Positions 695 to 16,220 of a stretch of 39,794 nt of DNA are shown piece after piece. The position numbers and the translations under genes were made by a program. Source of the stretch: a virus; UHGV virus genome UHGV-0220445. One strand, written 5' to 3'. Within the stretch, counting starts at the first letter, position 1. The number at the start of each line of letters is the position of its first letter. Under the pieces are notes generated by a model. The model was not told the DNA's origin, did not search any database, and saw only the letters and a program-made list of their open reading frames with translations.

Positions 695-998
695 ACGAAG
701 AAGTTCGATTTCATACTGTAGATCATAAGCAAGTTGTTGATATTGTTAAAATTAATGATATTAATCTATTGATTGCTTGTATTAAAGCTGGTATGAAAGA
801 TATGTATAATGATTTAAAATTATTGAATCAATGAGAATTACTAGAGTTATACCTGGCACCACGTAAAATGCGCTTCGGTATCTCCGAAGGCATGGTGATG
901 GCTGCTGGCCCTGGCGGAAAAGATATCTTCCTGTTAAGCCCGGATGCTGGTGCTAAACCTGGCCACCAGGTTAAGTAATTAAACAACCTCTCTTCGCA

Positions 999-1025
999 AT
1001 GCCCGGCAACACGCCGGGCATTTTC
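999..1025 (+). terminator. Putative intrinsic terminator (atgcccggc-aacac-gccgggcat + TTTT)
   Basis: 9-bp GC-rich stem followed by T run. Confidence 0.55.
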
Positions 1026-1061
1026 ATATAGACACAATCCCTTCTGATTTACACAGTACCT

Positions 1062-1127
1062 AAAACAATTTGTTTTCTGCCTTTTGTTGATGGAGATAAT
1101 AAACCACATAAGAAAACAACTTGTTTT
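1062..1127 (+). promoter_or_regulatory. Early promoter region with two copies of palindromic motif AAAACAAnTTGTTTT flanking GATAAT
   Basis: aaaacaatttgtttt at ~1062-1076, gataat ~1095-1100, aaaacaacttgtttt ~1113-1127, then SD ggag and ATG 1140. Confidence 0.45.
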
Positions 1128-1139
1128 GGAGTGGTTGAA

Positions 1140-1439
1140 ATGTTGAACATTACCCAAGCCTACCAGGTGGCATTGATCAGCTCATCTCATACATCAGAGG
1201 AAGATGCTCGCCGGTTCATGATCGCAAGCAATGAGCTGGATTGGGTTTCACAAATTGACGGCGGTTGTATTGTCCACGCCGGGTTACAGGATGATGTCTG
1301 GAAAGAGGACTTGCGTCGATATGGTATATCCGAAGGCGCGATTGCTAACATTCAGAAAGTACTTGATGTAGGCTTTGACTCTGTACATTTTGATTGTGGT
1401 GCACCGGTCGTTGAAGGGCTTGAGTGCTGGAACTGGTAA
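1140..1439 (+). CDS. Hypothetical early protein (~99 aa)
   Basis: ORF track (1131..1439); ATG at 1140 is 8 nt after SD ggag. Confidence 0.5.
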   Translation: MLNITQAYQVALISSSHTSEEDARRFMIASNELDWVSQIDGGCIVHAGLQDDVWKEDLRRYGISEGAIANIQKVLDVGFDSVHFDCGAPVVEGLECWNW

Positions 1440-1484
1440 CAGATATTAAAGCATTGGTAGTTTGTTTTTAGGATTATCAAAGAA

Positions 1485-2219
1485 ATGAAAAAGTTGAAAA
1501 GTTTAGAAATCCCTGGAACTGGTTATAAATTCTTTATGGACAACGCGGAGTGTGCACCTAACGCGTTGGAAAAAATACAAAGTCTTATCAACAGCCTTAC
1601 TGAAGAAGCGAAAGAACTGAAGAGCGAGGCGACAAAGGACAATACAGCTAAAATCCAATGCTTAAATCTCGTCTCTTATTGTTTATATCAAGTATCCAAA
1701 ACACTGATTAAAGGCAATATCTATTACGACGATGAAGACACCTCGACACCTGAAGAAAAAGATAGCGATGAAGAACTCTACGAAGATATCTCTACTAGTG
1801 CGGGTCACGCTGCCTTCGATGCTATGGGTGAATCGTCAGGCATCAGATCGTTTGTTGAACAGAACAATTCGACAATAATGATTGAGTACTGTGAACAAAC
1901 AAGCTCCAAGGCCATACATGTTCTTCACGATGTTGCTGCAGGGGTTCGCTGTGAGGCTGAAGCGGTCAGAAAAGATGTATTTGGTGCAGACAGTAATACC
2001 GTGAAAGCGTTTATCAACAGTGCTCTGCTAAATTCTTACTCAAACCTTATAGTCAATGCGGCACTATGCGCAAATTCAGGTGAAGAACACATTGTCATAA
2101 CTGAAACCAAACATGAGCATCAACAGTCACCAACCATAGAAGAGGTAACTGCATTGGCTATCAAACAGGCGAGTGAAATTAGTGATGAAATTCTCTCTCT
2201 GCTAAACAAAACTAAGTAA
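1485..2219 (+). CDS. Hypothetical protein (244 aa) with acidic stretch
   Basis: ORF track; acidic segment YYDDEDTSTPEEKDSDEELYEDI; no family recognised. Confidence 0.5.
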   Translation: MKKLKSLEIPGTGYKFFMDNAECAPNALEKIQSLINSLTEEAKELKSEATKDNTAKIQCLNLVSYCLYQVSKTLIKGNIYYDDEDTSTPEEKDSDEELYEDISTSAGHAAFDAMGESSGIRSFVEQNNSTIMIEYCEQTSSKAIHVLHDVAAGVRCEAEAVRKDVFGADSNTVKAFINSALLNSYSNLIVNAALCANSGEEHIVITETKHEHQQSPTIEEVTALAIKQASEISDEILSLLNKTK

Positions 2220-2299
2220 GACATTGATAATGGCGGTCACAATTTGATTCTTTTCTATAAGAATCCGTTGATCGCCACTACTCCCCTTCCATACCCGCA

Positions 2300-3110
2300 A
2301 TCACATCCTTAAATATCAATAAGTTATAGTTGTTTATACAATCAAGAAAACAACTGAATAACAGATCAACGAAACATCAACGCTTTCACCCGATTTGGTC
2401 TAAAAAATTGACGTTTTCACACATCACTGCTTATACCCGTAATTCTACGCAGCAGACAGCGCCACAGCGTCCAATTTTCACCACAGACGACCCAACACAC
2501 TACCAACAAAAACACACGCTCAAAATCGCTCCCGTTGCGTTACACAACCATATAAACAACTTATTTTCAGGTATAACGAAACAACTAAATAACACATATG
2601 CCATTTCCAAAAACAACCAACCTCTTTATGGCAGGCTACCGAAAAGACCCACCTCTTCTCCCCAGGCTACCGGACAACCAACCTAACTTTCACAGGCAAT
2701 CCGAAAAACATTCATACGCGCGATACCCACGATACGCCATTCCCCCAAATAGCGAAGCACACCAGAATCACTGAAACCCCCAACGAAGCCTGTAACCGCA
2801 AGGATTCTCTCAATCCCAAAAGACACGAAACATAACAATCACGGGAAACGCCATTACCCAATACACGAATAACTACAAAAGCCTTTCACACTCCAGACAA
2901 ACAACTCAAACACAATAACGAAAGCAATCGCCCACCTGCCATTACTCCATAGACGGAGAAGAACAATCACCAAAACGACGAGAACACCCCATAGAAGAAC
3001 CACCGCAAAACTAACGAAACCACATACACCGACAGGGAAAACAACACACCCAATTCACCAACAGAATTAGTCGCCGTATAGAACGTTCTGGAAGGAGTGA
3101 GCATTAACGC
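2300..3110 (+). other. Non-coding tract with strong strand compositional asymmetry (A+C-rich, G- and T-poor on + strand)
   Basis: Manual count of one 60-nt row (2461-2520): A 24, C 23, G 6, T 7; same bias visible by eye across ~800 bp; only a low-complexity ORF overlaps. Confidence 0.7.
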
Positions 3111-3280
3111 CTATAGAGAGGTTGAAACAGATAAAACACGAAGAAAACACAACATGTATAGCGAACAAGACAGGTATGTATAAGTGGGGAGGGAAGGAGT
3201 GGTGTCGCCTCCTTTTTCGTATTTATTCAACTCCTGATTTTATCCCCCGTAACACCCCTACGGTCAGCCTTCGGTCCATA

Positions 3281-3411
3281 CAGGGAAAAGGCTGCATCCC
3301 GCTACAGAAACGGCTGGGTTGCCTTCGGGGAACGGCTGGGGATTTTCAGGGAAACGGTCGAGTTGCCTGTGTGGATTTCGGGAAAAGGCTCGATGCCGGT
3401 TCAGGAACGGC
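3281..3411 (+). repeat. Iteron-like array: six degenerate direct repeats C(A/G)GG(A/G)AA(A)CGGC
   Basis: Copies starting ~3281, 3305, 3326, 3347, 3379, 3402; spacing mostly 21-24 bp. Confidence 0.6.
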
Positions 3412-3730
3412 GGCGTACCGGTATAGCGAGAGGGAGAGTTGCGGCTACCCACCTGTAATGTGCGGGAAGAAGAGAGGCGCTCACGTGCAGGCGAACTTAC
3501 TTACCGCTGGATTCCCTCTGAATGCCCAGCTACAGCGTAATTGTGCCAGACAGCCAACGGGTCACAATCGATTTCAGTAGGTTTTCGGGGAGATGATTAT
3601 TCTGCCCACCAGCCACCTTCGGCCACTAAATCAGAATAATGTAAAAAGTGTACTCGGTACTGAACCTGAAAACTCACTGCCAAAACCACATTCACCGGAA
3701 TAAAATCCTTTTTCGCCTGTGCGTTATTGC

Positions 3731-3764
3731 GATAATAACACCATCAAGAAAACATGTTGTTTAA
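3731..3764 (+). promoter_or_regulatory. Early promoter (TGcGATAAT extended -10) plus leader motif caagaaaacatgttgttt
   Basis: gataat ~3731-3736 preceded by tgc; motif ~3745-3764; ATG 3775. Confidence 0.45.
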
Positions 3765-3774
3765 GGATTGCTTT

Positions 3775-4104
3775 ATGTTTGCAAATATCGACATCAACCA
3801 AATTAAGAAATTAACTCAAAAAGAGTTTGATCAGTTTTATGAGTTAGAAGGTTGGTCTTCCACTCTGATCAATTCGCGGTGGGTGCTTGAGCTGATGACT
3901 CGTGATGACGCACCTGCTTTGATGATTTGCGACATGGGTGAAGATGCTGACTTTATGGATATGAGCGAATTTTGTGTGGACACATACAACCGCAGCCAGA
4001 AGTACTACTTCACATGCGATAGCGAGAATGACGTTATTTCTAAGGTCTATCTTCACCTCGTCCAGCATTGGGACGTTCAGGAGTTTCTTGAAGTATTCGA
4101 GTAA
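3775..4104 (+). CDS. Hypothetical early protein (acidic)
   Basis: ORF track (3754..4104); ATG 3775 has SD aagga 7 nt upstream. Confidence 0.5.
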   Translation: MFANIDINQIKKLTQKEFDQFYELEGWSSTLINSRWVLELMTRDDAPALMICDMGEDADFMDMSEFCVDTYNRSQKYYFTCDSENDVISKVYLHLVQHWDVQEFLEVFE

Positions 4105-4210
4105 CCCCAACCAAAGCCAGCATTGCTGGCTTAATTTCTCTATAGCCGCAGGGAAGAACCTGCATATCGCTCATGCACCTGATCAATATGCTTTGTAGCC
4201 GTTTTCTCAC

Positions 4211-4248
4211 TGGTATTATTTACGCCATTGAGAAAACAAGTTGTTTAC
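4211..4248 (+). promoter_or_regulatory. Early promoter (TGgTATTAT) plus leader motif gagaaaacaagttgtttac
   Basis: Same architecture as other early genes. Confidence 0.4.
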
Positions 4249-4257
4249 GGAGTTGTA

Positions 4258-4569
4258 ATGAAAAAATCATTGGTTCTTGGTCTGGACAAAGACCAGAAGA
4301 GAAAAGAGAAGCCTGCACTGGTTGCTCAATTAACTTTGCTGGACATCGTTGCCAATGGAACCTCTATTCGTCTGTTCCGTGAAACAGCGGTGTCTTTCGA
4401 TAAAAACACCTTTACTCGTTATGTAATGAATGTTCGTCGCCAGCGTGGAAAAGGCTGGATGGCATTTCAAAGAATGTGGCCGGAACATCAGCTCGAACTG
4501 GCTTTGATGGAAGTTAACCGCGTGGCCCAGCAAGAAATTCAGAGAGCATCAGTGATGGCAATAGCCTGA
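4258..4569 (+). CDS. Hypothetical early protein (~103 aa)
   Basis: ORF track (4228..4569); ATG 4258 follows SD ggag. Confidence 0.5.
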   Translation: MKKSLVLGLDKDQKRKEKPALVAQLTLLDIVANGTSIRLFRETAVSFDKNTFTRYVMNVRRQRGKGWMAFQRMWPEHQLELALMEVNRVAQQEIQRASVMAIA

Positions 4570-4604
4570 TAATGTGCAAGTGGTAATTAGTCGACAGTAC
4601 GACA

Positions 4605-4631
4605 GCCCCGCCATCCTTACGGGGCTTTTTT
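4605..4631 (+). terminator. Intrinsic terminator (gccccg-ccatcctta-cggggc + TTTTTT)
   Basis: GC stem followed by T6. Confidence 0.65.
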
Positions 4632-4636
4632 GTATT

Positions 4637-4652
4637 GTAAGTACATACTTAC
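4637..4652. promoter_or_regulatory. Palindromic motif GTAAGTAcaTACTTAC (late-type element)
   Basis: Member of a motif family recurring before structural genes. Confidence 0.45.
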
Positions 4653-4695
4653 GATCATAGAATATAAAAATAACCAATACACTACGGAGAGTGAA

Positions 4696-5091
4696 ATGAC
4701 CATTAAACGCGAAAAACTGACAGTTGATGTTTACTATGCCTCTGAAACCGCCGAAGGTAAGAATGTGGCAAAAATCACCGTTGTTACGTACAACACCGAA
4801 ACTGGTGCCGAAGTCCAGGCCAGTACGATCGTGCGTAAAGGTGATGCCTCCGACGGCGAGTACGCGACTCAATACCAGTCTATTTTCGATGCAACTGACC
4901 CGCTGCTGCTGAAAATCGAGAACTACTTCCGCCAGGTTGATGAAGAGGTGTTTGAACCAATGATGAATATGGTTAACACCGTATTCGCCTCCAACCTGAA
5001 TACCAACACTACCTGGATTGGTCAGTACGGCCTGCGCATTACCTCCGGCATTCCTGCCGAGACCTTAATCCCTGAAAGCGTATTCGCTTAA
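4696..5091 (+). CDS. Hypothetical protein (131 aa), moron-like unit between two terminators
   Basis: ORF track (4630..5091); ATG 4696 follows SD ggagag. Confidence 0.55.
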   Translation: MTIKREKLTVDVYYASETAEGKNVAKITVVTYNTETGAEVQASTIVRKGDASDGEYATQYQSIFDATDPLLLKIENYFRQVDEEVFEPMMNMVNTVFASNLNTNTTWIGQYGLRITSGIPAETLIPESVFA

Positions 5092-5100
5092 TCCTCTTTA

Positions 5101-5127
5101 AATGGCGCGTAAACCGCGCCATTTTAT
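5101..5127 (+). terminator. Intrinsic terminator (aatggcgcg-taaac-cgcgccatt + TTTATT)
   Basis: 9-bp stem plus T-rich tail. Confidence 0.6.
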
Positions 5128-5137
5128 TAAGCCCGAT

Positions 5138-5183
5138 AACAATTTGTTTTCTGCCTTATCTGATTTGTGAAAATGATTTCACT
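5138..5183 (+). promoter_or_regulatory. Early promoter: motif aacaatTTGTTTtctgcc (-35-like TTGTTT) ~19 bp upstream of GAAAAT
   Basis: Sequence pattern shared with 1062-1100. Confidence 0.4.
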
Positions 5184-5208
5184 GAAGCAACTTAATAAGG
5201 AAACCATC

Positions 5209-5583
5209 ATGGGACTTGATATCTATATCGAGACACAGCCTAAAAACGATCTGAATAACGAGGCATCCAGAAAGCAGGTTGCTTACTTCCGTAAGTTCAA
5301 TGCGCTCGTTGGGTGGATGGAGCGCAACGTAGGTGAAGTCGAAAATTGTGAGCTTTTAGAATTAACGATGAATGACATTTGTTTTCTGAAGGCTCATTTG
5401 ATGCACATAAACGAAAGCAATTGCGAAGAGTACTTGCCTACCCGGGAAGGTTTTTTCTTCGGCAGTCAGGAGTACGATGAAGGTTACTGGCATGATGTGG
5501 GGCAGTTGAAAGAGCTTGTGGAAGACCTGATTAAGAACCACGACTTTCACAATAACAGACTGACCTTCTGCGCCTGGTGGTAA
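5209..5583 (+). CDS. Hypothetical early protein (~124 aa)
   Basis: ORF track (5167..5583); ATG 5209 follows SD aagga. Confidence 0.5.
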   Translation: MGLDIYIETQPKNDLNNEASRKQVAYFRKFNALVGWMERNVGEVENCELLELTMNDICFLKAHLMHINESNCEEYLPTREGFFFGSQEYDEGYWHDVGQLKELVEDLIKNHDFHNNRLTFCAWW

Positions 5584-5585
5584 AT

Positions 5586-5729
5586 ATGGGCGATTTCAAG
5601 AAACGCCTGAAGGAAAGAGCCGAGATGGTCAGAAAGCAAAACGCCTCTTCTGTCATCAGATACGCAAGGCAGTTTAGTCGCAACAACAAATCAGTTGAGG
5701 AAAAGATCCTTAGCGTAATCGGTCGATAA
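5586..5729 (+). CDS. Possible small basic protein (47 aa)
   Basis: ATG 3 nt after previous stop; followed by hairpin; below ORF-track length cut-off. Confidence 0.3.
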   Translation: MGDFKKRLKERAEMVRKQNASSVIRYARQFSRNNKSVEEKILSVIGR

Positions 5730-5734
5730 TTATT

Positions 5735-5758
5735 AAGGCCACCAGCATTGGTGGTCTT
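5735..5758 (+). repeat. Conserved stem-loop aaggccacca-gcat-tggtggtctt (copy 1)
   Basis: Near-identical copy at 6206-6229; both directly follow a gene. Confidence 0.6.
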
Positions 5759-5867
5759 AAATGACTTTTAATAACCGAAGGTTAGTTTGAAACCTGGCTA
5801 TCAACTTCCAGAACCTTTCTTGTGTATTCAGCCTGTATTAACTTCTTTTATGCCTTATCTACACTGC

Positions 5868-5901
5868 GATAATTACACCAACAAGAAAACAACATGTTTA
5901 C
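5868..5901 (+). promoter_or_regulatory. Early promoter (TGcGATAAT) plus leader motif caagaaaacaacatgtttac
   Basis: Same architecture as 3731-3764. Confidence 0.45.
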
Positions 5902-5912
5902 GCAGTGAGGAT

Positions 5913-6200
5913 ATGCTCATGACTGATTTCACCATTACCCCTAAAGCACAAAATGTATTCCTTGAATCATGGCTGGACTTGCCGGAAACAGAACAGCAAG
6001 AAATGGATCATGTGGATTATGACGAGCAGGTAAGCACGCGATTCTTCCACTTTGAGGGATGCGTTTACGACATTGCCGACTTCATGCGAGATGACCGCTT
6101 CCCTGGATGGCACGCCAGTTATCCACTAAACGCCTTTGCCATGCTGATGATCCGTGTGGGTGATTCAGGGGATACCATCGACATCGGTCTGCTCCACTAA
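5913..6200 (+). CDS. Hypothetical early protein (~95 aa)
   Basis: ORF track (5787..6200); start at ATG 5913 or 5919 downstream of promoter motif. Confidence 0.45.
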   Translation: MLMTDFTITPKAQNVFLESWLDLPETEQQEMDHVDYDEQVSTRFFHFEGCVYDIADFMRDDRFPGWHASYPLNAFAMLMIRVGDSGDTIDIGLLH

Positions 6201-6205
6201 AGACT

Positions 6206-6229
6206 AAGGCCACCAATGCTGGTGGCCTT
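6206..6229 (+). repeat. Conserved stem-loop aaggccacc-aatgct-ggtggcctt (copy 2)
   Basis: Perfect 9-bp stem; followed by C-rich G-poor tract 6236-6330. Confidence 0.6.
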
Positions 6230-6330
6230 AAATGACCATCCTGTTTCCCGCAGGCTAAAAACACCAACCTCTTACCTCCAGGCAACCGACAAACCCACCT
6301 GTTCCCGTCCGGCTACCGCAACTTTCCACT

Positions 6331-6389
6331 TTGACGCCTTATTCGTACAACGATAATTAACACCAACAAGAAAACAATATGTTATTTAC
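6331..6389 (+). promoter_or_regulatory. Early promoter TTGACG-15-GATAAT plus leader motif caagaaaacaatatgttatttac
   Basis: Best sigma70-like match among the early promoters. Confidence 0.5.
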
Positions 6390-6404
6390 GATAAGGAATT
6401 AATC

Positions 6405-6887
6405 ATGAATTTTATCGCTACTGTAAACGCACCCGCACATGGCAATATCGCTGTAACGTTCTCTGACATTGAAAAACGAGTACTTGGTGCCTGGCGTCAC
6501 AATGAGACGGTAGAACTGTCAGAACAAGAAAAATGCATTATTGCACGCGACATCATTGGCAATCGTCGTTACTCGCGGGTATTTGAGAAAGCGTATGTGG
6601 TAAATTCTGGGTTCGGAACGTTCGTCTTTCCGGTGCGCTCCGGGCGATTCTGCCAGTCCAAGCTGATTGAGTTCGCTACGCAGATTTCTGTCTGGATTAA
6701 AACTCAATCGTCGTTCAAATTTTCCGACGATGAAGCAGTATCGCAGGGGATGCGGATCGCCAACAATGCGATTAAATGCAAAAACATTACGTATACCGCT
6801 GGCGTTGACACATGGAAACTGTTTTGCGCTAACTTTATGCTGAATGTATACGCAAGCAACCGCATCCACATCCTTGATGGCGTGTAA
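6405..6887 (+). CDS. Hypothetical early protein (160 aa)
   Basis: ORF track; SD aagga upstream. Confidence 0.55.
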   Translation: MNFIATVNAPAHGNIAVTFSDIEKRVLGAWRHNETVELSEQEKCIIARDIIGNRRYSRVFEKAYVVNSGFGTFVFPVRSGRFCQSKLIEFATQISVWIKTQSSFKFSDDEAVSQGMRIANNAIKCKNITYTAGVDTWKLFCANFMLNVYASNRIHILDGV

Positions 6888-6890
6888 CTG

Positions 6891-6920
6891 AGAAGAGGGC
6901 CAGAAACGGCCCTTTCTCTA
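6891..6920 (+). terminator. Putative terminator (agggcc-agaaac-ggccct + TTTCTCT)
   Basis: Stem-loop immediately after stop at 6887. Confidence 0.45.
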
Positions 6921-6936
6921 TAGCCACCAGCTGCCG

Positions 6937-7014
6937 CAGGGAAATTTTCAGAAACGGCGAGGAACGTATTCATGAGCCGACGGGAAACGGCCAGGATTTT
7001 TTCGGGAAACGGCG
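6937..7014 (+). repeat. Second iteron-like array (cagggaaa, cagaaacggcg, cgggaaacggcc, cgggaaacggcg)
   Basis: Same repeat family as 3281-3411. Confidence 0.55.
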
Positions 7015-7436
7015 GGGGTCGCCTTTATGTAGAAAACTGAGCGGGAGAAACCCGGAATCGCGCCAGAAATTGCGTAGCGGCGCTGGGGTATCGCTGGTGG
7101 GGGGGTCAGCCCCTGGGCCATCCAGATAGCTTTCGCTATGTGATTATGTGAATCCGTGGGTAAATCACTGTAAGCGCGTACACGTTGCCCAACGTGGCAA
7201 TCATACGCGAGCGGATACGGAACAAAACAAAATGCCGATCTGCGCCGACAAATAAACGCGGATCACATAGCAAGACTAAAAGCCAATGATTAGCCATACG
7301 TTATAGCGCAATATAACGCATTTTGAGCGCGTTAATGTGTTAAGTAATGGGTATGTACTGGTAAGGATATAAAAGCGCGTCTATGGCGTTATTTTGGCGC
7401 TTATTTTTATGTTGTTGGAGTGAGTCAAAGACAATA

Positions 7437-7466: not shown

Positions 7467-7486
7467 TGGGAGTATTGGAAACGAAA

Positions 7487-7507
7487 AAGCGCCCATAGTG
7501 GGCGCTT
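7487..7507 (-). terminator. Hairpin agcgccca-tag-tgggcgct, partial copy of the 37-bp leader repeat
   Basis: Immediately past the stop of 7512..7742; T-rich on minus strand. Confidence 0.5.
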
Positions 7508-7511
7508 GATT

Positions 7512-7742
7512 TTATTTGTGCAAACTGATTTTAAATCCCATTTCTACAAACGCTTTTAGCATTAAAAATATATCAGCGTCATTCACGTCTGCTTTTTTTC
7601 GCTCCTGGTCGCTCAATAAGTCAATTTTGCGCGTCGTTTCATCGATAAACTCGACTGAGCGCCCAGCGTAACCAGCGATCCCAGCGATGCGATTAACAAA
7701 ATATTCATTGCGCACGTTAACGCCAGCGATAAGAATAAACAT
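7512..7742 (-). CDS. Small hypothetical protein (76 aa), paralog A
   Basis: ORF track; N-terminus shares MxIxIxGVN...IAG.AGYA with 7785..8012. Confidence 0.55.
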   Translation of the reverse strand: MFILIAGVNVRNEYFVNRIAGIAGYAGRSVEFIDETTRKIDLLSDQERKKADVNDADIFLMLKAFVEMGFKISLHK

Positions 7743-7776
7743 GATTAAGCTCCTTAAAAGCGCCCATAGTGGGCGC
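7740..7776 (-). repeat. 37-bp perfect direct repeat (start codon + SD + hairpin), copy 1
   Basis: catgattaagctccttaaaagcgcccatagtgggcgc identical at 7740-7776 and 8010-8046. Confidence 0.85.
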
Positions 7777-7784
7777 TATTGTTT

Positions 7785-8012
7785 TTATTTTTCTAAGTGA
7801 ATATTAAAGCCAGCGTTTAAAAATTCTTGAAGCATTAAAGTTACATCAGCTTCATGGATTCCTGCGCGCGCTCTATGTTCTACGTCATTGATGTTTATTT
7901 TAAACGTTGTTTCGTCAACCACTTCAGAACTTAGAGCATACCCAGCTAAACCAGCAATATCATAAACAAGAGTATGATTGTTGATATTTACGCCAGAGAT
8001 GAAAATAACCAT
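7785..8012 (-). CDS. Small hypothetical protein (75 aa), paralog B
   Basis: ORF track; paralogous to 7512..7742. Confidence 0.55.
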   Translation of the reverse strand: MVIFISGVNINNHTLVYDIAGLAGYALSSEVVDETTFKININDVEHRARAGIHEADVTLMLQEFLNAGFNIHLEK

Positions 8013-8046
8013 GATTAAGCTCCTTAAAAGCGCCCATAGTGGGCGC
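8010..8046 (-). repeat. 37-bp perfect direct repeat, copy 2
   Basis: Identical to 7740-7776. Confidence 0.85.
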
Positions 8047-8059
8047 CAGATTCCATTAA

Positions 8060-9003: not shown

Positions 9004-9525
9004 TTAAAACGGAAGGATTCGTTCAACCCAATCGAAGAAAACAAGTATTTTTCTGCCGTCTTCTAACTTAAGAGTGACCTGGCAAGCATCAACGCCTCTT
9101 GATACCCCTTCTATTTCACGACCGTCTGCCATGTAGACCCTTATAGATTGGTCGTTTTGATAAGCCTTGCGACATATCGCAAAAAAGTCACGACGTGATG
9201 GCTGATTAACCATCTGTTCATTGTTCAGTGTTAGTCGACCTGTGAATGAAGTGTCAACCTCTTCTATGCCTGACTCAATTGTGCTAATGCGCTCAAGAGG
9301 GAGCCTTACACGATTTGTGTTGCTAAACGGATCTGGTGTGAGGTTCAGCTTATTTCTTGCGCTCAACAGCCCGTAGACATACATGCAAAACACTTGGCCG
9401 TCTTCGAGAGTGACTCTTACAGGAAATTTTGCACTCCGCCAGAAGAGCAAGGTGCGCTCAGCATGTTCGTAGTCTCGCGGCCAGACTTCAGCCGGTATGC
9501 CGTAGGTGATGTCCAATGTTTTCAT
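9004..9525 (-). CDS. Hypothetical protein (173 aa)
   Basis: ORF track; start overlaps the stop of the upstream gene. Confidence 0.5.
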   Translation of the reverse strand: MKTLDITYGIPAEVWPRDYEHAERTLLFWRSAKFPVRVTLEDGQVFCMYVYGLLSARNKLNLTPDPFSNTNRVRLPLERISTIESGIEEVDTSFTGRLTLNNEQMVNQPSRRDFFAICRKAYQNDQSIRVYMADGREIEGVSRGVDACQVTLKLEDGRKILVFFDWVERILPF

Positions 9526-10295: not shown

Positions 10296-10574
10296 TTACG
10301 GCAGTTTGCTTAGAATTTGCTCTAAATCTTCCTTTGTCATATTAGAGTTCTCATAGATGCGCATGATTTTCTCACGAGCCTTAGCAGAGACTCCAACGGC
10401 AGATGAAACTTTGTCAAATTCAGCCATTGTCATCGCTTCCAGAATGGTATTGATAACTTCAGCCTTAGACATTTTGATGTTTTTTTCTTTTAGTTTCATT
10501 TGAAACTTTCCAAGTTTGTCATTGGCCTTATCGGACAATGCCACCTGACAATAAGTTGTTTTCTTTTCGCTCAT
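10296..10574 (-). CDS. Hypothetical protein (92 aa), translationally coupled to helicase
   Basis: ORF track; starts 2 nt after the helicase stop. Confidence 0.45.
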   Translation of the reverse strand: MSEKKTTYCQVALSDKANDKLGKFQMKLKEKNIKMSKAEVINTILEAMTMAEFDKVSSAVGVSAKAREKIMRIYENSNMTKEDLEQILSKLP

Positions 10575-15125: not shown

Positions 15126-15392
15126 ATGACGTTAACCGATAAACAAAAGGACATCATCAAAACGCTCAATCTCGGTTATGAGCGAGGTCATCTACTTGAC
15201 CTGGACGAATTGCTTGAAGTTTTGCCGTACAAGACAACCAAGCAAAGTATCCAGTTCTCAATTCGCGCTCTGATAAAAAAGGGGCTGGTGGAGAAAGGGC
15301 ATACGCGCCAACGCAGTGACAATCGCTATCACCGCCGGACTCTTGGGTTAACCACTTTAGGTCGAGCCAAAGCGAAGTTACTGGTGATGTAA
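15126..15392 (+). CDS. Small basic protein, possible winged-helix DNA binder (88 aa)
   Basis: ORF track; size and charge only. Confidence 0.35.
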   Translation: MTLTDKQKDIIKTLNLGYERGHLLDLDELLEVLPYKTTKQSIQFSIRALIKKGLVEKGHTRQRSDNRYHRRTLGLTTLGRAKAKLLVM

Positions 15393-15505: not shown

Positions 15506-15569
15506 CAGAAAACAAGTTGGTTAGCAGATGCAGTAAACAAGTTGTTTTAGAGCGCATGGACGCGCTCTG
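15506..15569 (+). promoter_or_regulatory. Two copies of early-type motif (gaaaacaagttggtt, gtaaacaagttgtttta) followed by hairpin agagcgc-atggac-gcgctct
   Basis: Sequence pattern directly upstream of 15588 start. Confidence 0.4.
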
Positions 15570-15587
15570 TGTGTTTTAGAGGGATCT

Positions 15588-16220
15588 ATGACGGTCGAAA
15601 AAGACGAGGTAAAAACTCGCCTGACACCAGCGGAGTGGGCCGAAGCTGAAGCCAAATGGACGTCAGGCGAATATACACTCTCAAAGCTGGAGGAAGAGTA
15701 CGGCATTCGTCGTGAAACACTCTCCAGACATTTCAAAAAGCGAGGATTAGAGAAAGGCGCGGACTCTGTTGGGAAGATGGTTCGTGAGTCTCTTAAATCT
15801 GACGCAGAGCTTCGCGCTAAAGCCCGTGCGGAAAAGATAGAAGAACGTCGTACACGTTATGACGGCTGGGCGTATGCGTTGGGGCAGATGGTGATGGTCG
15901 AAGTCACTACGGCCAAACGTGAGGGTAAGCCTTTAGGGGCGATTGAGGATTCTCTCAAGAGCTTACAGAGAGCCAGTAATACCCTTGCAAAATGCTTTGA
16001 AGTTTCGTCCAAAGCATTGGGCATGGATCATGCGGAAAATGACGAGGAAGAAATTCCGAACCTGGTATTTGGTGAGCTTACGCCTTCCCAGGTGGCGAAA
16101 TTACGTCAGGAAGACGACGAGCCTGAAATCATCGATGACGAATTGCTTGAGACGTTAGAAGAAGAAGCTCTAAGCGAATTTGATGCGACAGATGATGGAA
16201 GTGAAGGGGAGGACGAATAA
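15588..16220 (+). CDS. Putative terminase small subunit
   Basis: Directly upstream of and overlapping the large terminase; HTH-like N-terminus, acidic C-terminal tail. Confidence 0.5.
   Translation: MTVEKDEVKTRLTPAEWAEAEAKWTSGEYTLSKLEEEYGIRRETLSRHFKKRGLEKGADSVGKMVRESLKSDAELRAKARAEKIEERRTRYDGWAYALGQMVMVEVTTAKREGKPLGAIEDSLKSLQRASNTLAKCFEVSSKALGMDHAENDEEEIPNLVFGELTPSQVAKLRQEDDEPEIIDDELLETLEEEALSEFDATDDGSEGEDE

Follow-up and report, generated by a model that had tools for sequence, protein, structure and literature searches.

The 39,794-nucleotide virus genome UHGV-0220445 (referred to here, at its full length, as the window) contains, in front of a series of small early genes, repeated copies of a short palindrome, which raises the question of whether this element acts as DNA, by binding a regulator at promoters, or as RNA, in the 5' leaders of transcripts, and which protein would recognize it. 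Positions 852-7000 of the window share 98% identity with Escherichia phage Cyrano (OV696614), the phage-plasmid known as pLF82 in E. coli LF82, with weaker matches to Klebsiella phage-plasmids. Cyrano has been classed as SSU5-like (PMC9928086) and, judging from this similarity, the window also is an SSU5-like phage-plasmid. The comparisons below involve the complete genomes of Cyrano, Salmonella phage SSU5 and Klebsiella phage pJN2-26. The palindrome is a genuine, conserved, family-wide regulatory element that is best read, from its placement, as two DNA operators in inverted orientation on the two sides of extended -10 promoters; that it constitutes a dual operator for a putative repressor encoded by the phage-plasmid itself is an interpretation that we favor with moderate confidence.

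The core of the element is the 13-base-pair (bp) palindrome AAACAAnTTGTTT, with a one-base spacer, or, equivalently, AACA-N3-TGTT. Allowing at most one mismatch, this core was observed 9 times in the window, 18 times in Cyrano, 20 times in SSU5 and 17 times in pJN2-26, against shuffle means of 0.1, 0.4, 0.2 and 0.1, respectively, which amounts to a 50- to 100-fold enrichment over shuffled sequences across the four genomes; a genome-wide scan against background, suggested as a check in a preliminary description of this DNA, thus finds the core enriched in each of them. The exact sequence AACANNNTGTT is present 8 times in the window, every copy being intergenic, and 15 times in Cyrano (2.2 expected), and a position-weight scan of Cyrano yields ~17 distinct sites compared to 0-2 raw matches in shuffled sequences. 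The promoter/leader cassette surrounding the motif was recovered independently by a repeat finder (families D2-D5 and D11). All nine copies listed in the preliminary description are present, with cores at 1063-1075, 1114-1126, 3750-3762, 4234-4246, 5137-5149, 5887-5899, 6372-6384, 15510-15522 and 15535-15547, but the consensus given there, AAAACAAnnTTGTTT, has a two-base spacer and is wrong: allowing up to 2 mismatches, it produces 7 matches versus 2.7 expected, and 3 of 100 shuffles reach 7.

The copies between 1062 and 6389 adjoin promoters in two arrangements. Class I copies (centres 1120, 3756, 4240, 5893 and 6378) lie downstream of the -10 box, and class II copies (centres 1069 and 5143) occur in inverted orientation upstream of it; a single promoter, at 1095-1100, has both. 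The original placement of the element in the leader, after a GATAAT-like hexamer, accordingly holds for five of the seven copies in this region and fails for those at 1062-1076 and 5138-5150, which cover the -35 position. The copies and the associated signals, including the Shine-Dalgarno (SD) sequences, are given below, with distances in nucleotides (nt).

1063-1075: perfect class II copy AAACAATTTGTTT, centre 1069, 26 nt before the GATAAT at 1095, at ~-38 of the promoter for the open reading frame (ORF) that begins at 1140, with the extended arm TTGTTTTCT on the promoter side
1095-1100, + strand: -10 hexamer GATAAT of the first promoter cassette, with palindromes on both sides, centres 51 bp apart
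1114-1126, + strand: perfect class I copy AAACAACTTGTTT, centre 1120, 20 nt past the -10 box, directly followed by SD GGAG; ATG at 1140
2554-2566: degenerate copy AAACAACTTATTT with 1 mismatch, in an A/C-rich non-coding stretch, in neither position class
3731-3762, + strand: promoter and putative operator, TGcGATAAT (hexamer 3731-3736), AACACCATC, AAGAAAACATGTTGTTT; core 3750-3762, centre 3756, 20 nt past the -10 box, then SD AAGGA and ATG at 3775
4214-4246, + strand: promoter and putative operator, TGgTATTAT (hexamer 4214-4219); perfect core 4234-4246, centre 4240, 21 nt past the -10 box, then SD GGAG and ATG at 4258
5137-5174, + strand: promoter with a class II copy only, core 5137-5149 TAACAATTTGTTT, centre 5143, then TTTTCTGCCTT and TGtGAAAAT (hexamer 5169-5174, 26 nt past the centre); ATG of the gene at 5209
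5847-5857: decayed class II arm TTTTATGCCTT upstream of the next unit, intact in SSU5 and pJN2-26
5868-5899, + strand: promoter and putative operator, TGcGATAAT (hexamer 5868-5873); core 5887-5899 AAACAACATGTTT, centre 5893, 20 nt past the -10 box; ATG at 5919
6352-6384, + strand: promoter and putative operator, GATAAT at 6352-6357; core 6372-6384 AAACAATATGTTA with 2 mismatches, centre 6378, 21 nt past the -10 box, ATG at 6405; perfect at the orthologous sites of SSU5 and pJN2-26
15510-15547, + strand: two tandem copies before the small terminase gene terS, cores 15510-15522 and 15535-15547, centres 25 bp apart
15548-15576: terminator-like hairpin after the terS copies; terS ATG at 15588

The terS hairpin consists of AGAGCGCATGGACGCGCTCT followed by GTGTGTTTT, lies between the putative operators and the ribosome-binding site of terS, and is kept in SSU5 and pJN2-26; given this hairpin, the late operon may need antitermination. 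The annotated starts of the Cyrano genes CYRAN_105 and CYRAN_110 (window 3754 and ~5855) fall inside or upstream of the motif and, given the SD-bearing ATG codons at 3775 and 5919, the deposited starts are probably too far upstream.

The same two classes account for the sites of the entire family. Among 287 distinct sites collected from 79 related loci, 156 belong to class I, with the consensus ttG.gaTAaTaACaCCAAcAAGAAAACAAnTTGTTTA.gga, and 131 to class II, with the reverse complement ccc.tAAACAAnTTGTTTTCtgcctT located upstream of the start of the gene that the site precedes. Of the 150 class I sites with a -10-like hexamer (GATAAT in 98 and TATTAT in 31), 143 have the palindrome centre 20-21 nt past the end of this hexamer, and 117 have TGn directly before it, as in extended -10 promoters (window examples at 3728-3736, 4211-4219, 5165-5174 and 5865-5873); the distance from the centre to the ATG is variable, from 8 to >31 nt. 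In class II, the centre is located 26 nt before the first -10 base in 62 of the 80 sites with a recognisable box, and many promoters carry both classes with the centres 51 bp apart. If transcription starts ~7 nt past the hexamer, class I sites would be centred at ~+13/+14 and class II sites at ~-38, so about half of the family copies lie at ~-38 and the element is not restricted to leaders as originally proposed. A consensus promoter scan of 900-7000 (at least 4 of 6 matches per hexamer and at least 9 of 12 overall) called none of the motif-associated promoters because their -35 hexamers are poor, which fits extended -10 promoters that would be active unless repressed. The palindrome is flanked asymmetrically, by AGA at one end and by AA(G) at the opposite end, and the AGA arm points toward the -10 box in both classes. 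In the set of 146 sites with at most one mismatch, symmetry fails beyond +/-6, where the sequence is conserved but asymmetric and only 22-34 of the sites pair at positions +/-7 to +/-10. A divergent minus-strand promoter, TGtTATTAT, with which class II copies would also fall within a leader, was rejected because it is absent from promoters with class II copies only.

The distribution of the sites extends well beyond the early genes to which they had been assigned. In Cyrano, sites precede terS, parA, the replicative helicase gene, cobT, CYRAN_58, nrdB, tciA, CYRAN_87, an Eae-like gene and the small genes of the window, and SSU5 and pJN2-26 have a site at the same genes. When seven orthologous leader triplets are aligned at the palindrome, invariance is 92% in the twelve specified columns of the core, against 29% at the centre base, 52% in the upstream flank and 40% in the downstream flank. 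An exact scan of IMG/VR with a 19-base extended motif returned 77 stretches that come nearly throughout from SSU5-like elements. Some 25 low-similarity viral loci with the motif do not represent an independent regulon; they are P1-like phages (P7 and SJ46) with a single copy in one transferred module beside upf93.6. In P7 (AF503408, ~2600-2720), and also in SJ46, a class II copy together with its promoter follows upf93.6 and adjoins IS903; the stretch shows 90-91% identity to SSU5-like elements, which is evidence of module exchange between the two families of phage-plasmids. Among 185,579 bacterial genomes, one per species, the extended motif was found in 8 stretches, six of which are singletons in unrelated taxa (~four expected by chance), whereas two are on enterobacterial phage-plasmid-like contigs, one of ~109 kb and one of 58 kb with two copies. 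The essential absence of the extended motif from bacterial genomes outside phage-plasmid-like contigs argues for an element-encoded factor and, by its distribution, the motif belongs to the family of elements and not to a host regulon.

We then asked whether the palindrome is recognized as DNA or as RNA. The search for compensatory changes yielded ~125 variant contexts that are one-sided and 0 genuine double changes with compensation (the only formal instance is a low-complexity A/T run). In the set of 146 sites, which admits at most one mismatch, no deviations on both sides at positions 1-6 were detected. Five leaders with class I copies fold no better than shuffled sequences (z from -0.70 to +1.17); the terS leader alone reaches z of -2.2, with its terminator-like hairpin. 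No Rfam match was found across the whole window. The position locked to the -10 box, the upstream copies, the lack of covariation, the weak folds and the lack of Rfam matches jointly appear to favor DNA. Given that the core is the same on both strands, strand polarity cannot decide between the two.

The state of the associated genes in the lysogen was assessed using published RNA-seq data for LF82, which carries Cyrano, in the form of per-gene counts (PMC9928086, S1 table) with a background of ~10 normalised reads. Apart from the parA operon, motif-bearing genes are at or near background in these counts, for example terS (7), cobT (8), CYRAN_58 (6), tciA (7), CYRAN_101 (7), CYRAN_108 (6) and CYRAN_110 (7) (PMC9928086). 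Thus, promoters that look self-sufficient are silent in the plasmid state, which suggests that a repressor is made in that state, and a class I site at +13/+14 cannot activate; from these two points, we infer repression rather than activation.

Under the model that we prefer, SSU5-type phage-plasmids would possess ~twenty sigma-70 promoters with good, usually extended -10 elements (TGnGATAAT or TGnTATTAT) and no usable -35 element, in which the 13-bp palindrome with its flanks, AGA-[AAACAAnTTGTTT]-AA, occupies one or both of two fixed positions. One operator would be centred at ~+13/+14, the position of lac O1, and the other, inverted, at ~-38, over the -35 region; at double-operator promoters, the 51 bp between the centres would correspond to ~five helical turns. 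An oligomeric DNA-binding protein encoded by the element and produced in the plasmid (lysogenic) state would occupy these operators and block either the binding of RNA polymerase or promoter escape, and bridging of the two operators might clamp the promoter. The small early genes, the replication and nucleotide genes and the terminase operon would be held silent in this way until induction.

Three genes, all confined to SSU5-like elements, encode candidate binding proteins, two for the DNA route and one for the RNA route.

10296-10574, - strand: 92-amino-acid (aa) protein CYRAN_117, present in Cyrano, SSU5 and pJN2-26 (DNA route)
15126-15392, + strand: 88-aa MarR-like winged-helix protein, conserved in the family, just upstream of the putative terS operators (DNA route)
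9004-9525, - strand: FljA-like protein, full-length PF03614, present in all SSU5-like elements examined (RNA route)

With 114 normalised reads, 12-fold above background, CYRAN_117 is among the few genes of Cyrano that are expressed in the LF82 lysogen, as is the UvsW-like helicase gene upstream of it (46), at levels comparable to that of the annotated repressor gene CYRAN_45 (96) (PMC9928086). The 92-aa protein has a weak PHROG match to a 'transcriptional repressor' family; its assignment to the ribbon-helix-helix fold was a guess that gained no support from Pfam or from PDB sequence and profile searches, and a possible autoregulatory site at the start of its gene (10549-10561) was dismissed as a chance match since it is kept in neither SSU5 nor pJN2-26. 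The annotated helix-turn-helix repressor CYRAN_45 and the S24 protein CYRAN_98 were rejected as binders because both are absent from SSU5, which retains ~20 sites. The FljA-like protein matches PF03614 with E of 3.4e-69 over model positions 1-170 of 170, and its gene is found in SSU5, pJN2-26 and 97 viral loci. Its predicted structure lacks a helix-turn-helix and consists of two Sm/Hfq-like domains in tandem; by sequence, the protein has no relative among solved structures. The coding region of this gene contains a copy of the palindrome with 2 mismatches (9039-9051). Scans of viral contigs with alignments of the FljA-like and winged-helix proteins recovered SSU5-like loci only; given that the three genes are all limited to these elements, co-occurrence cannot discriminate among them.

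Several observations weigh against repression by a protein bound to paired DNA operators. A fixed distance from the transcription start is also a fixed distance from the 5' end of the RNA, which weakens the argument for DNA over RNA. The asymmetric flanks keep their polarity in both classes, which a simple symmetric dimer does not explain, and the half-site centres are ~7 bp apart, a short distance for a classical helix-turn-helix dimer. The copies at nrdB and at the helicase gene lie between co-directional genes and have no convincing -10 box at the standard distance. Because the sites come largely from paralogous cassettes, part of the fixed spacing may reflect common descent. The parA operon has a copy of the motif and yet shows 50-89 reads, ~5-fold background, in the lysogen, where the gene for the 88-aa winged-helix candidate is at background (PMC9928086). 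Finally, Pfam and PDB sequence and profile searches with the 92-aa protein were without a match, and SSU5 keeps the sites while CYRAN_45, the annotated helix-turn-helix repressor, is missing. The core of the original proposal, that a dimeric DNA-binding regulator acts on a set of promoters, is nevertheless the reading that these tests support best, by the fixed distance to the -10 box, the inverted upstream class, the lack of covariation, the weak RNA folds and the silence in the lysogen. The proposal as a whole is sustained in part, with corrections to the spacer, to the restriction to leaders and to early genes, and to the ease with which an RNA role was set aside.

The RNA role, which had been deemed less likely because of a weak stem, indeed finds weak folds and no covariation but is not easily dismissed given that the family conserves an FljA-like protein with a predicted Hfq-like fold. 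In this scenario, the main alternative, which we regard as doubtful, the FljA-like protein (9004-9525, - strand) would bind leader RNA at AAGAAAACAAnUUGUUUAAGG, often running into the SD sequence, block translation and accelerate mRNA decay, as reported for Salmonella FljA and fliC mRNA, resulting in a RegA-like translational regulon. In its favor, a full-length PF03614 protein is encoded on the same element, and the gene is present in every SSU5-like locus found, including the Klebsiella elements. Klebsiella lacks flagella, so conservation of the gene there would point to a target on the element itself. The left arm of the motif is A-rich and the right arm U-rich, the two types of sequence that are bound by the faces of Hfq. 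The predicted leader contains the class I copies, many of which abut the SD sequence; assuming the inferred starts, the 156 class I sites fit a placement in the sense-strand 5' untranslated region, whereas the 131 class II sites do not. Salmonella FljA is reported to act on fliC mRNA and to prevent its translation (PMC2652032, which cites Bonifield and Hughes 2003 and Yamamoto and Kutsukake 2006). Against the binding of leader RNA, 131 of the 287 sites are inverted and upstream of the accompanying promoter, the sites keep a constant distance from the -10 box but not from the SD sequence or the AUG, no compensatory changes and no stable hairpin were detected, and no copy of the motif lies upstream of the FljA-like gene. 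By best position-weight score, neither the Salmonella nor the E. coli fliC leader does better than shuffled sequences (p of 0.61 and 0.26, respectively); the fliC leader was accordingly rejected as an instance of the motif, with only the octamer CAAGTTGT shared (for Salmonella, confirmed from a published primer). The extended version of this idea, in which FljA is a family of tandem Sm/Hfq-like RNA-binding proteins that, in SSU5-type phage-plasmids, function via the motif as global post-transcriptional regulators of ~twenty mRNAs, appears unlikely; the inverted upstream copies would then serve divergent short transcripts or read-through RNAs. If true, it would represent a phage-borne, sequence-specific Hfq-like regulon in a family known only as a repressor of flagellar phase variation.

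The remaining alternatives dispense either with repression or with a factor encoded by the element. An activator or timing factor, such as the 88-aa winged-helix protein produced in the lytic phase, could recruit RNA polymerase from -38 to promoters that lack a -35 element. The poor -35 hexamers are compatible with such a role, as is the ~-38 centre, which overlaps the zone used by class II activators; furthermore, the winged-helix gene is located directly upstream of the putative terS operators and is silent in the lysogen just as the target genes are. Most of the promoters, however, have an extended -10 element and do not need a -35 contact, the most common position of the site, ~+13/+14, is a repressor position from which activation is impossible, and the same site can occupy both positions of a single promoter, so we consider activation quite improbable. 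We give still less credence, as a very improbable option, to the absence of any dedicated trans-acting factor, with the unit being a mobile promoter/terminator cassette in which the palindrome serves as an A/T-rich upstream element or -35 surrogate and as an initial transcribed sequence, and the repeats promote recombinational shuffling of small genes, a function that is compatible with paired operators as a second role. The recurrence of the ~75-bp unit between unrelated small ORFs (families D2-D5 and D11), the variable gene content between cassettes among relatives and the movement of one copy with a gene module into the P1-like P7 and SJ46 are all in line with such mobility. Yet the 12 specified bases of the palindrome hardly vary, in contrast to the centre base and the spacers, isolated copies away from the cassettes, at parA, the helicase gene, cobT, nrdB and terS, are conserved across genera, and an exact palindrome is unnecessary for an upstream element or an initial transcribed sequence. 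Binding of the site by a host transcription factor seems extremely improbable: a shared factor could serve all the elements from Escherichia, Salmonella and Klebsiella in which the sites persist, but the 8 stretches in the species-level genomes comprise six singletons at about the chance level and two enterobacterial contigs, and we know of no E. coli factor with this half-site and spacing.

The proposed paired operators resemble several known regulatory systems in part. In P1, a phage-plasmid of ~100 kb, the site for the C1 repressor is repeated at many scattered promoters, those of replication, late-gene and accessory operons, with some sites in inverted pairs; the P1 operator is an asymmetric 17-mer, ATTGCTCTAATAAATTT, bound by monomeric C1. 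Dispersed repressor sites on a phage-plasmid that act in the plasmid state, as proposed here, would be common to both, but the SSU5-like elements have a 13-bp palindromic core of different sequence at two fixed promoter positions, and no C1-type repressor is annotated in Cyrano or SSU5, although no homology search for C1 was made. The operator lac O1 is centred at +11, just downstream of the start, which is similar to class I at ~+13/+14, and in the gal OE/OI clamp, a second operator lies across the polymerase site at an integral number of helical turns, a likeness that suggests cooperative binding or looping; unlike in lac and gal, both sites here are within the polymerase footprint, 51 bp apart, and are reused at many promoters. 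Read as paired operators, the system would add a further form to the dispersed-operator regulons of P1 and large plasmids. On the RNA side, the SSU5-like elements parallel the FljA/fliC system of Salmonella in that they encode a PF03614 protein and carry class I copies in the predicted 5' leader, next to the SD sequence, the place at which FljA is reported to act on fliC mRNA (PMC2652032). The differences are that the fliC leader has no significant motif match, that half of the copies here are upstream of promoters, and that the proposed targets number ~twenty rather than one. RegA of T4 represses many early mRNAs via an A/U-rich, loosely conserved, non-palindromic site near the ribosome-binding site that overlaps the AUG. 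Should RNA be the target, the likeness would be that of one small protein controlling many early mRNAs; the sites here, by contrast, are palindromic, and no RegA homologue was seen, although no search for one was made. The PeSL units of T4-type phages, in which a short hairpin and an early promoter are repeated between small variable ORFs in a plastic region, share with the present cassettes the repetition of a short, conserved, promoter-bearing unit; palindromic operators flanking the -10 box are not described there, and the sequences are unrelated.

Phage-plasmids of the SSU5/pHCM2 type are common in Escherichia, Salmonella and Klebsiella. Phage-plasmids have been reported as carriers of resistance genes (PMC9600943). 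Literature searches on SSU5/pHCM2-type phage-plasmids and their regulation found no published account of lytic-gene silencing in these elements and no published description of the motif. The motif defines a candidate regulon of ~twenty promoters, those of early genes, helicase, nrdB, cobT, parA and the terminase operon, and narrows the possible regulators to a few small conserved proteins. In addition, the Hfq-like fold that the FljA family probably adopts, according to the structure prediction, is relevant to the long-standing question of whether DNA or RNA is the target of FljA.

Several other features of the window are worth mentioning. The left arm of the palindrome alone (AAGAAAACAAC and close variants) is also found at ~2343, 3035 and 3141, within a long non-coding A/C-rich stretch (2220-3700). 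This stretch contains ~30-nt units at 2610-2706, which recur at 6229-6322, and GGGAAACGGC-type repeats at 3283-3416, which recur at 6951-7029; the two types of repeats (2220-3700 and 6229-7030) could be iterons or protein-binding arrays. At the beginning of the window, positions 1-694 hold two inverted repeats with 100% complementary arms, one pairing 1-136 with 463-598 and the other 137-218 with 613-694. The homology with Cyrano starts only at ~852, beyond these repeats, which look like the product of a fold-back chimera at the end of the contig and not like a biological feature. Finally, the region 7485-8050 contains two similar small ORFs in tandem on the minus strand (7512-7742 and 7785-8012), each of which is bracketed by the hairpin aaaagcgcccatagtgggcgc.

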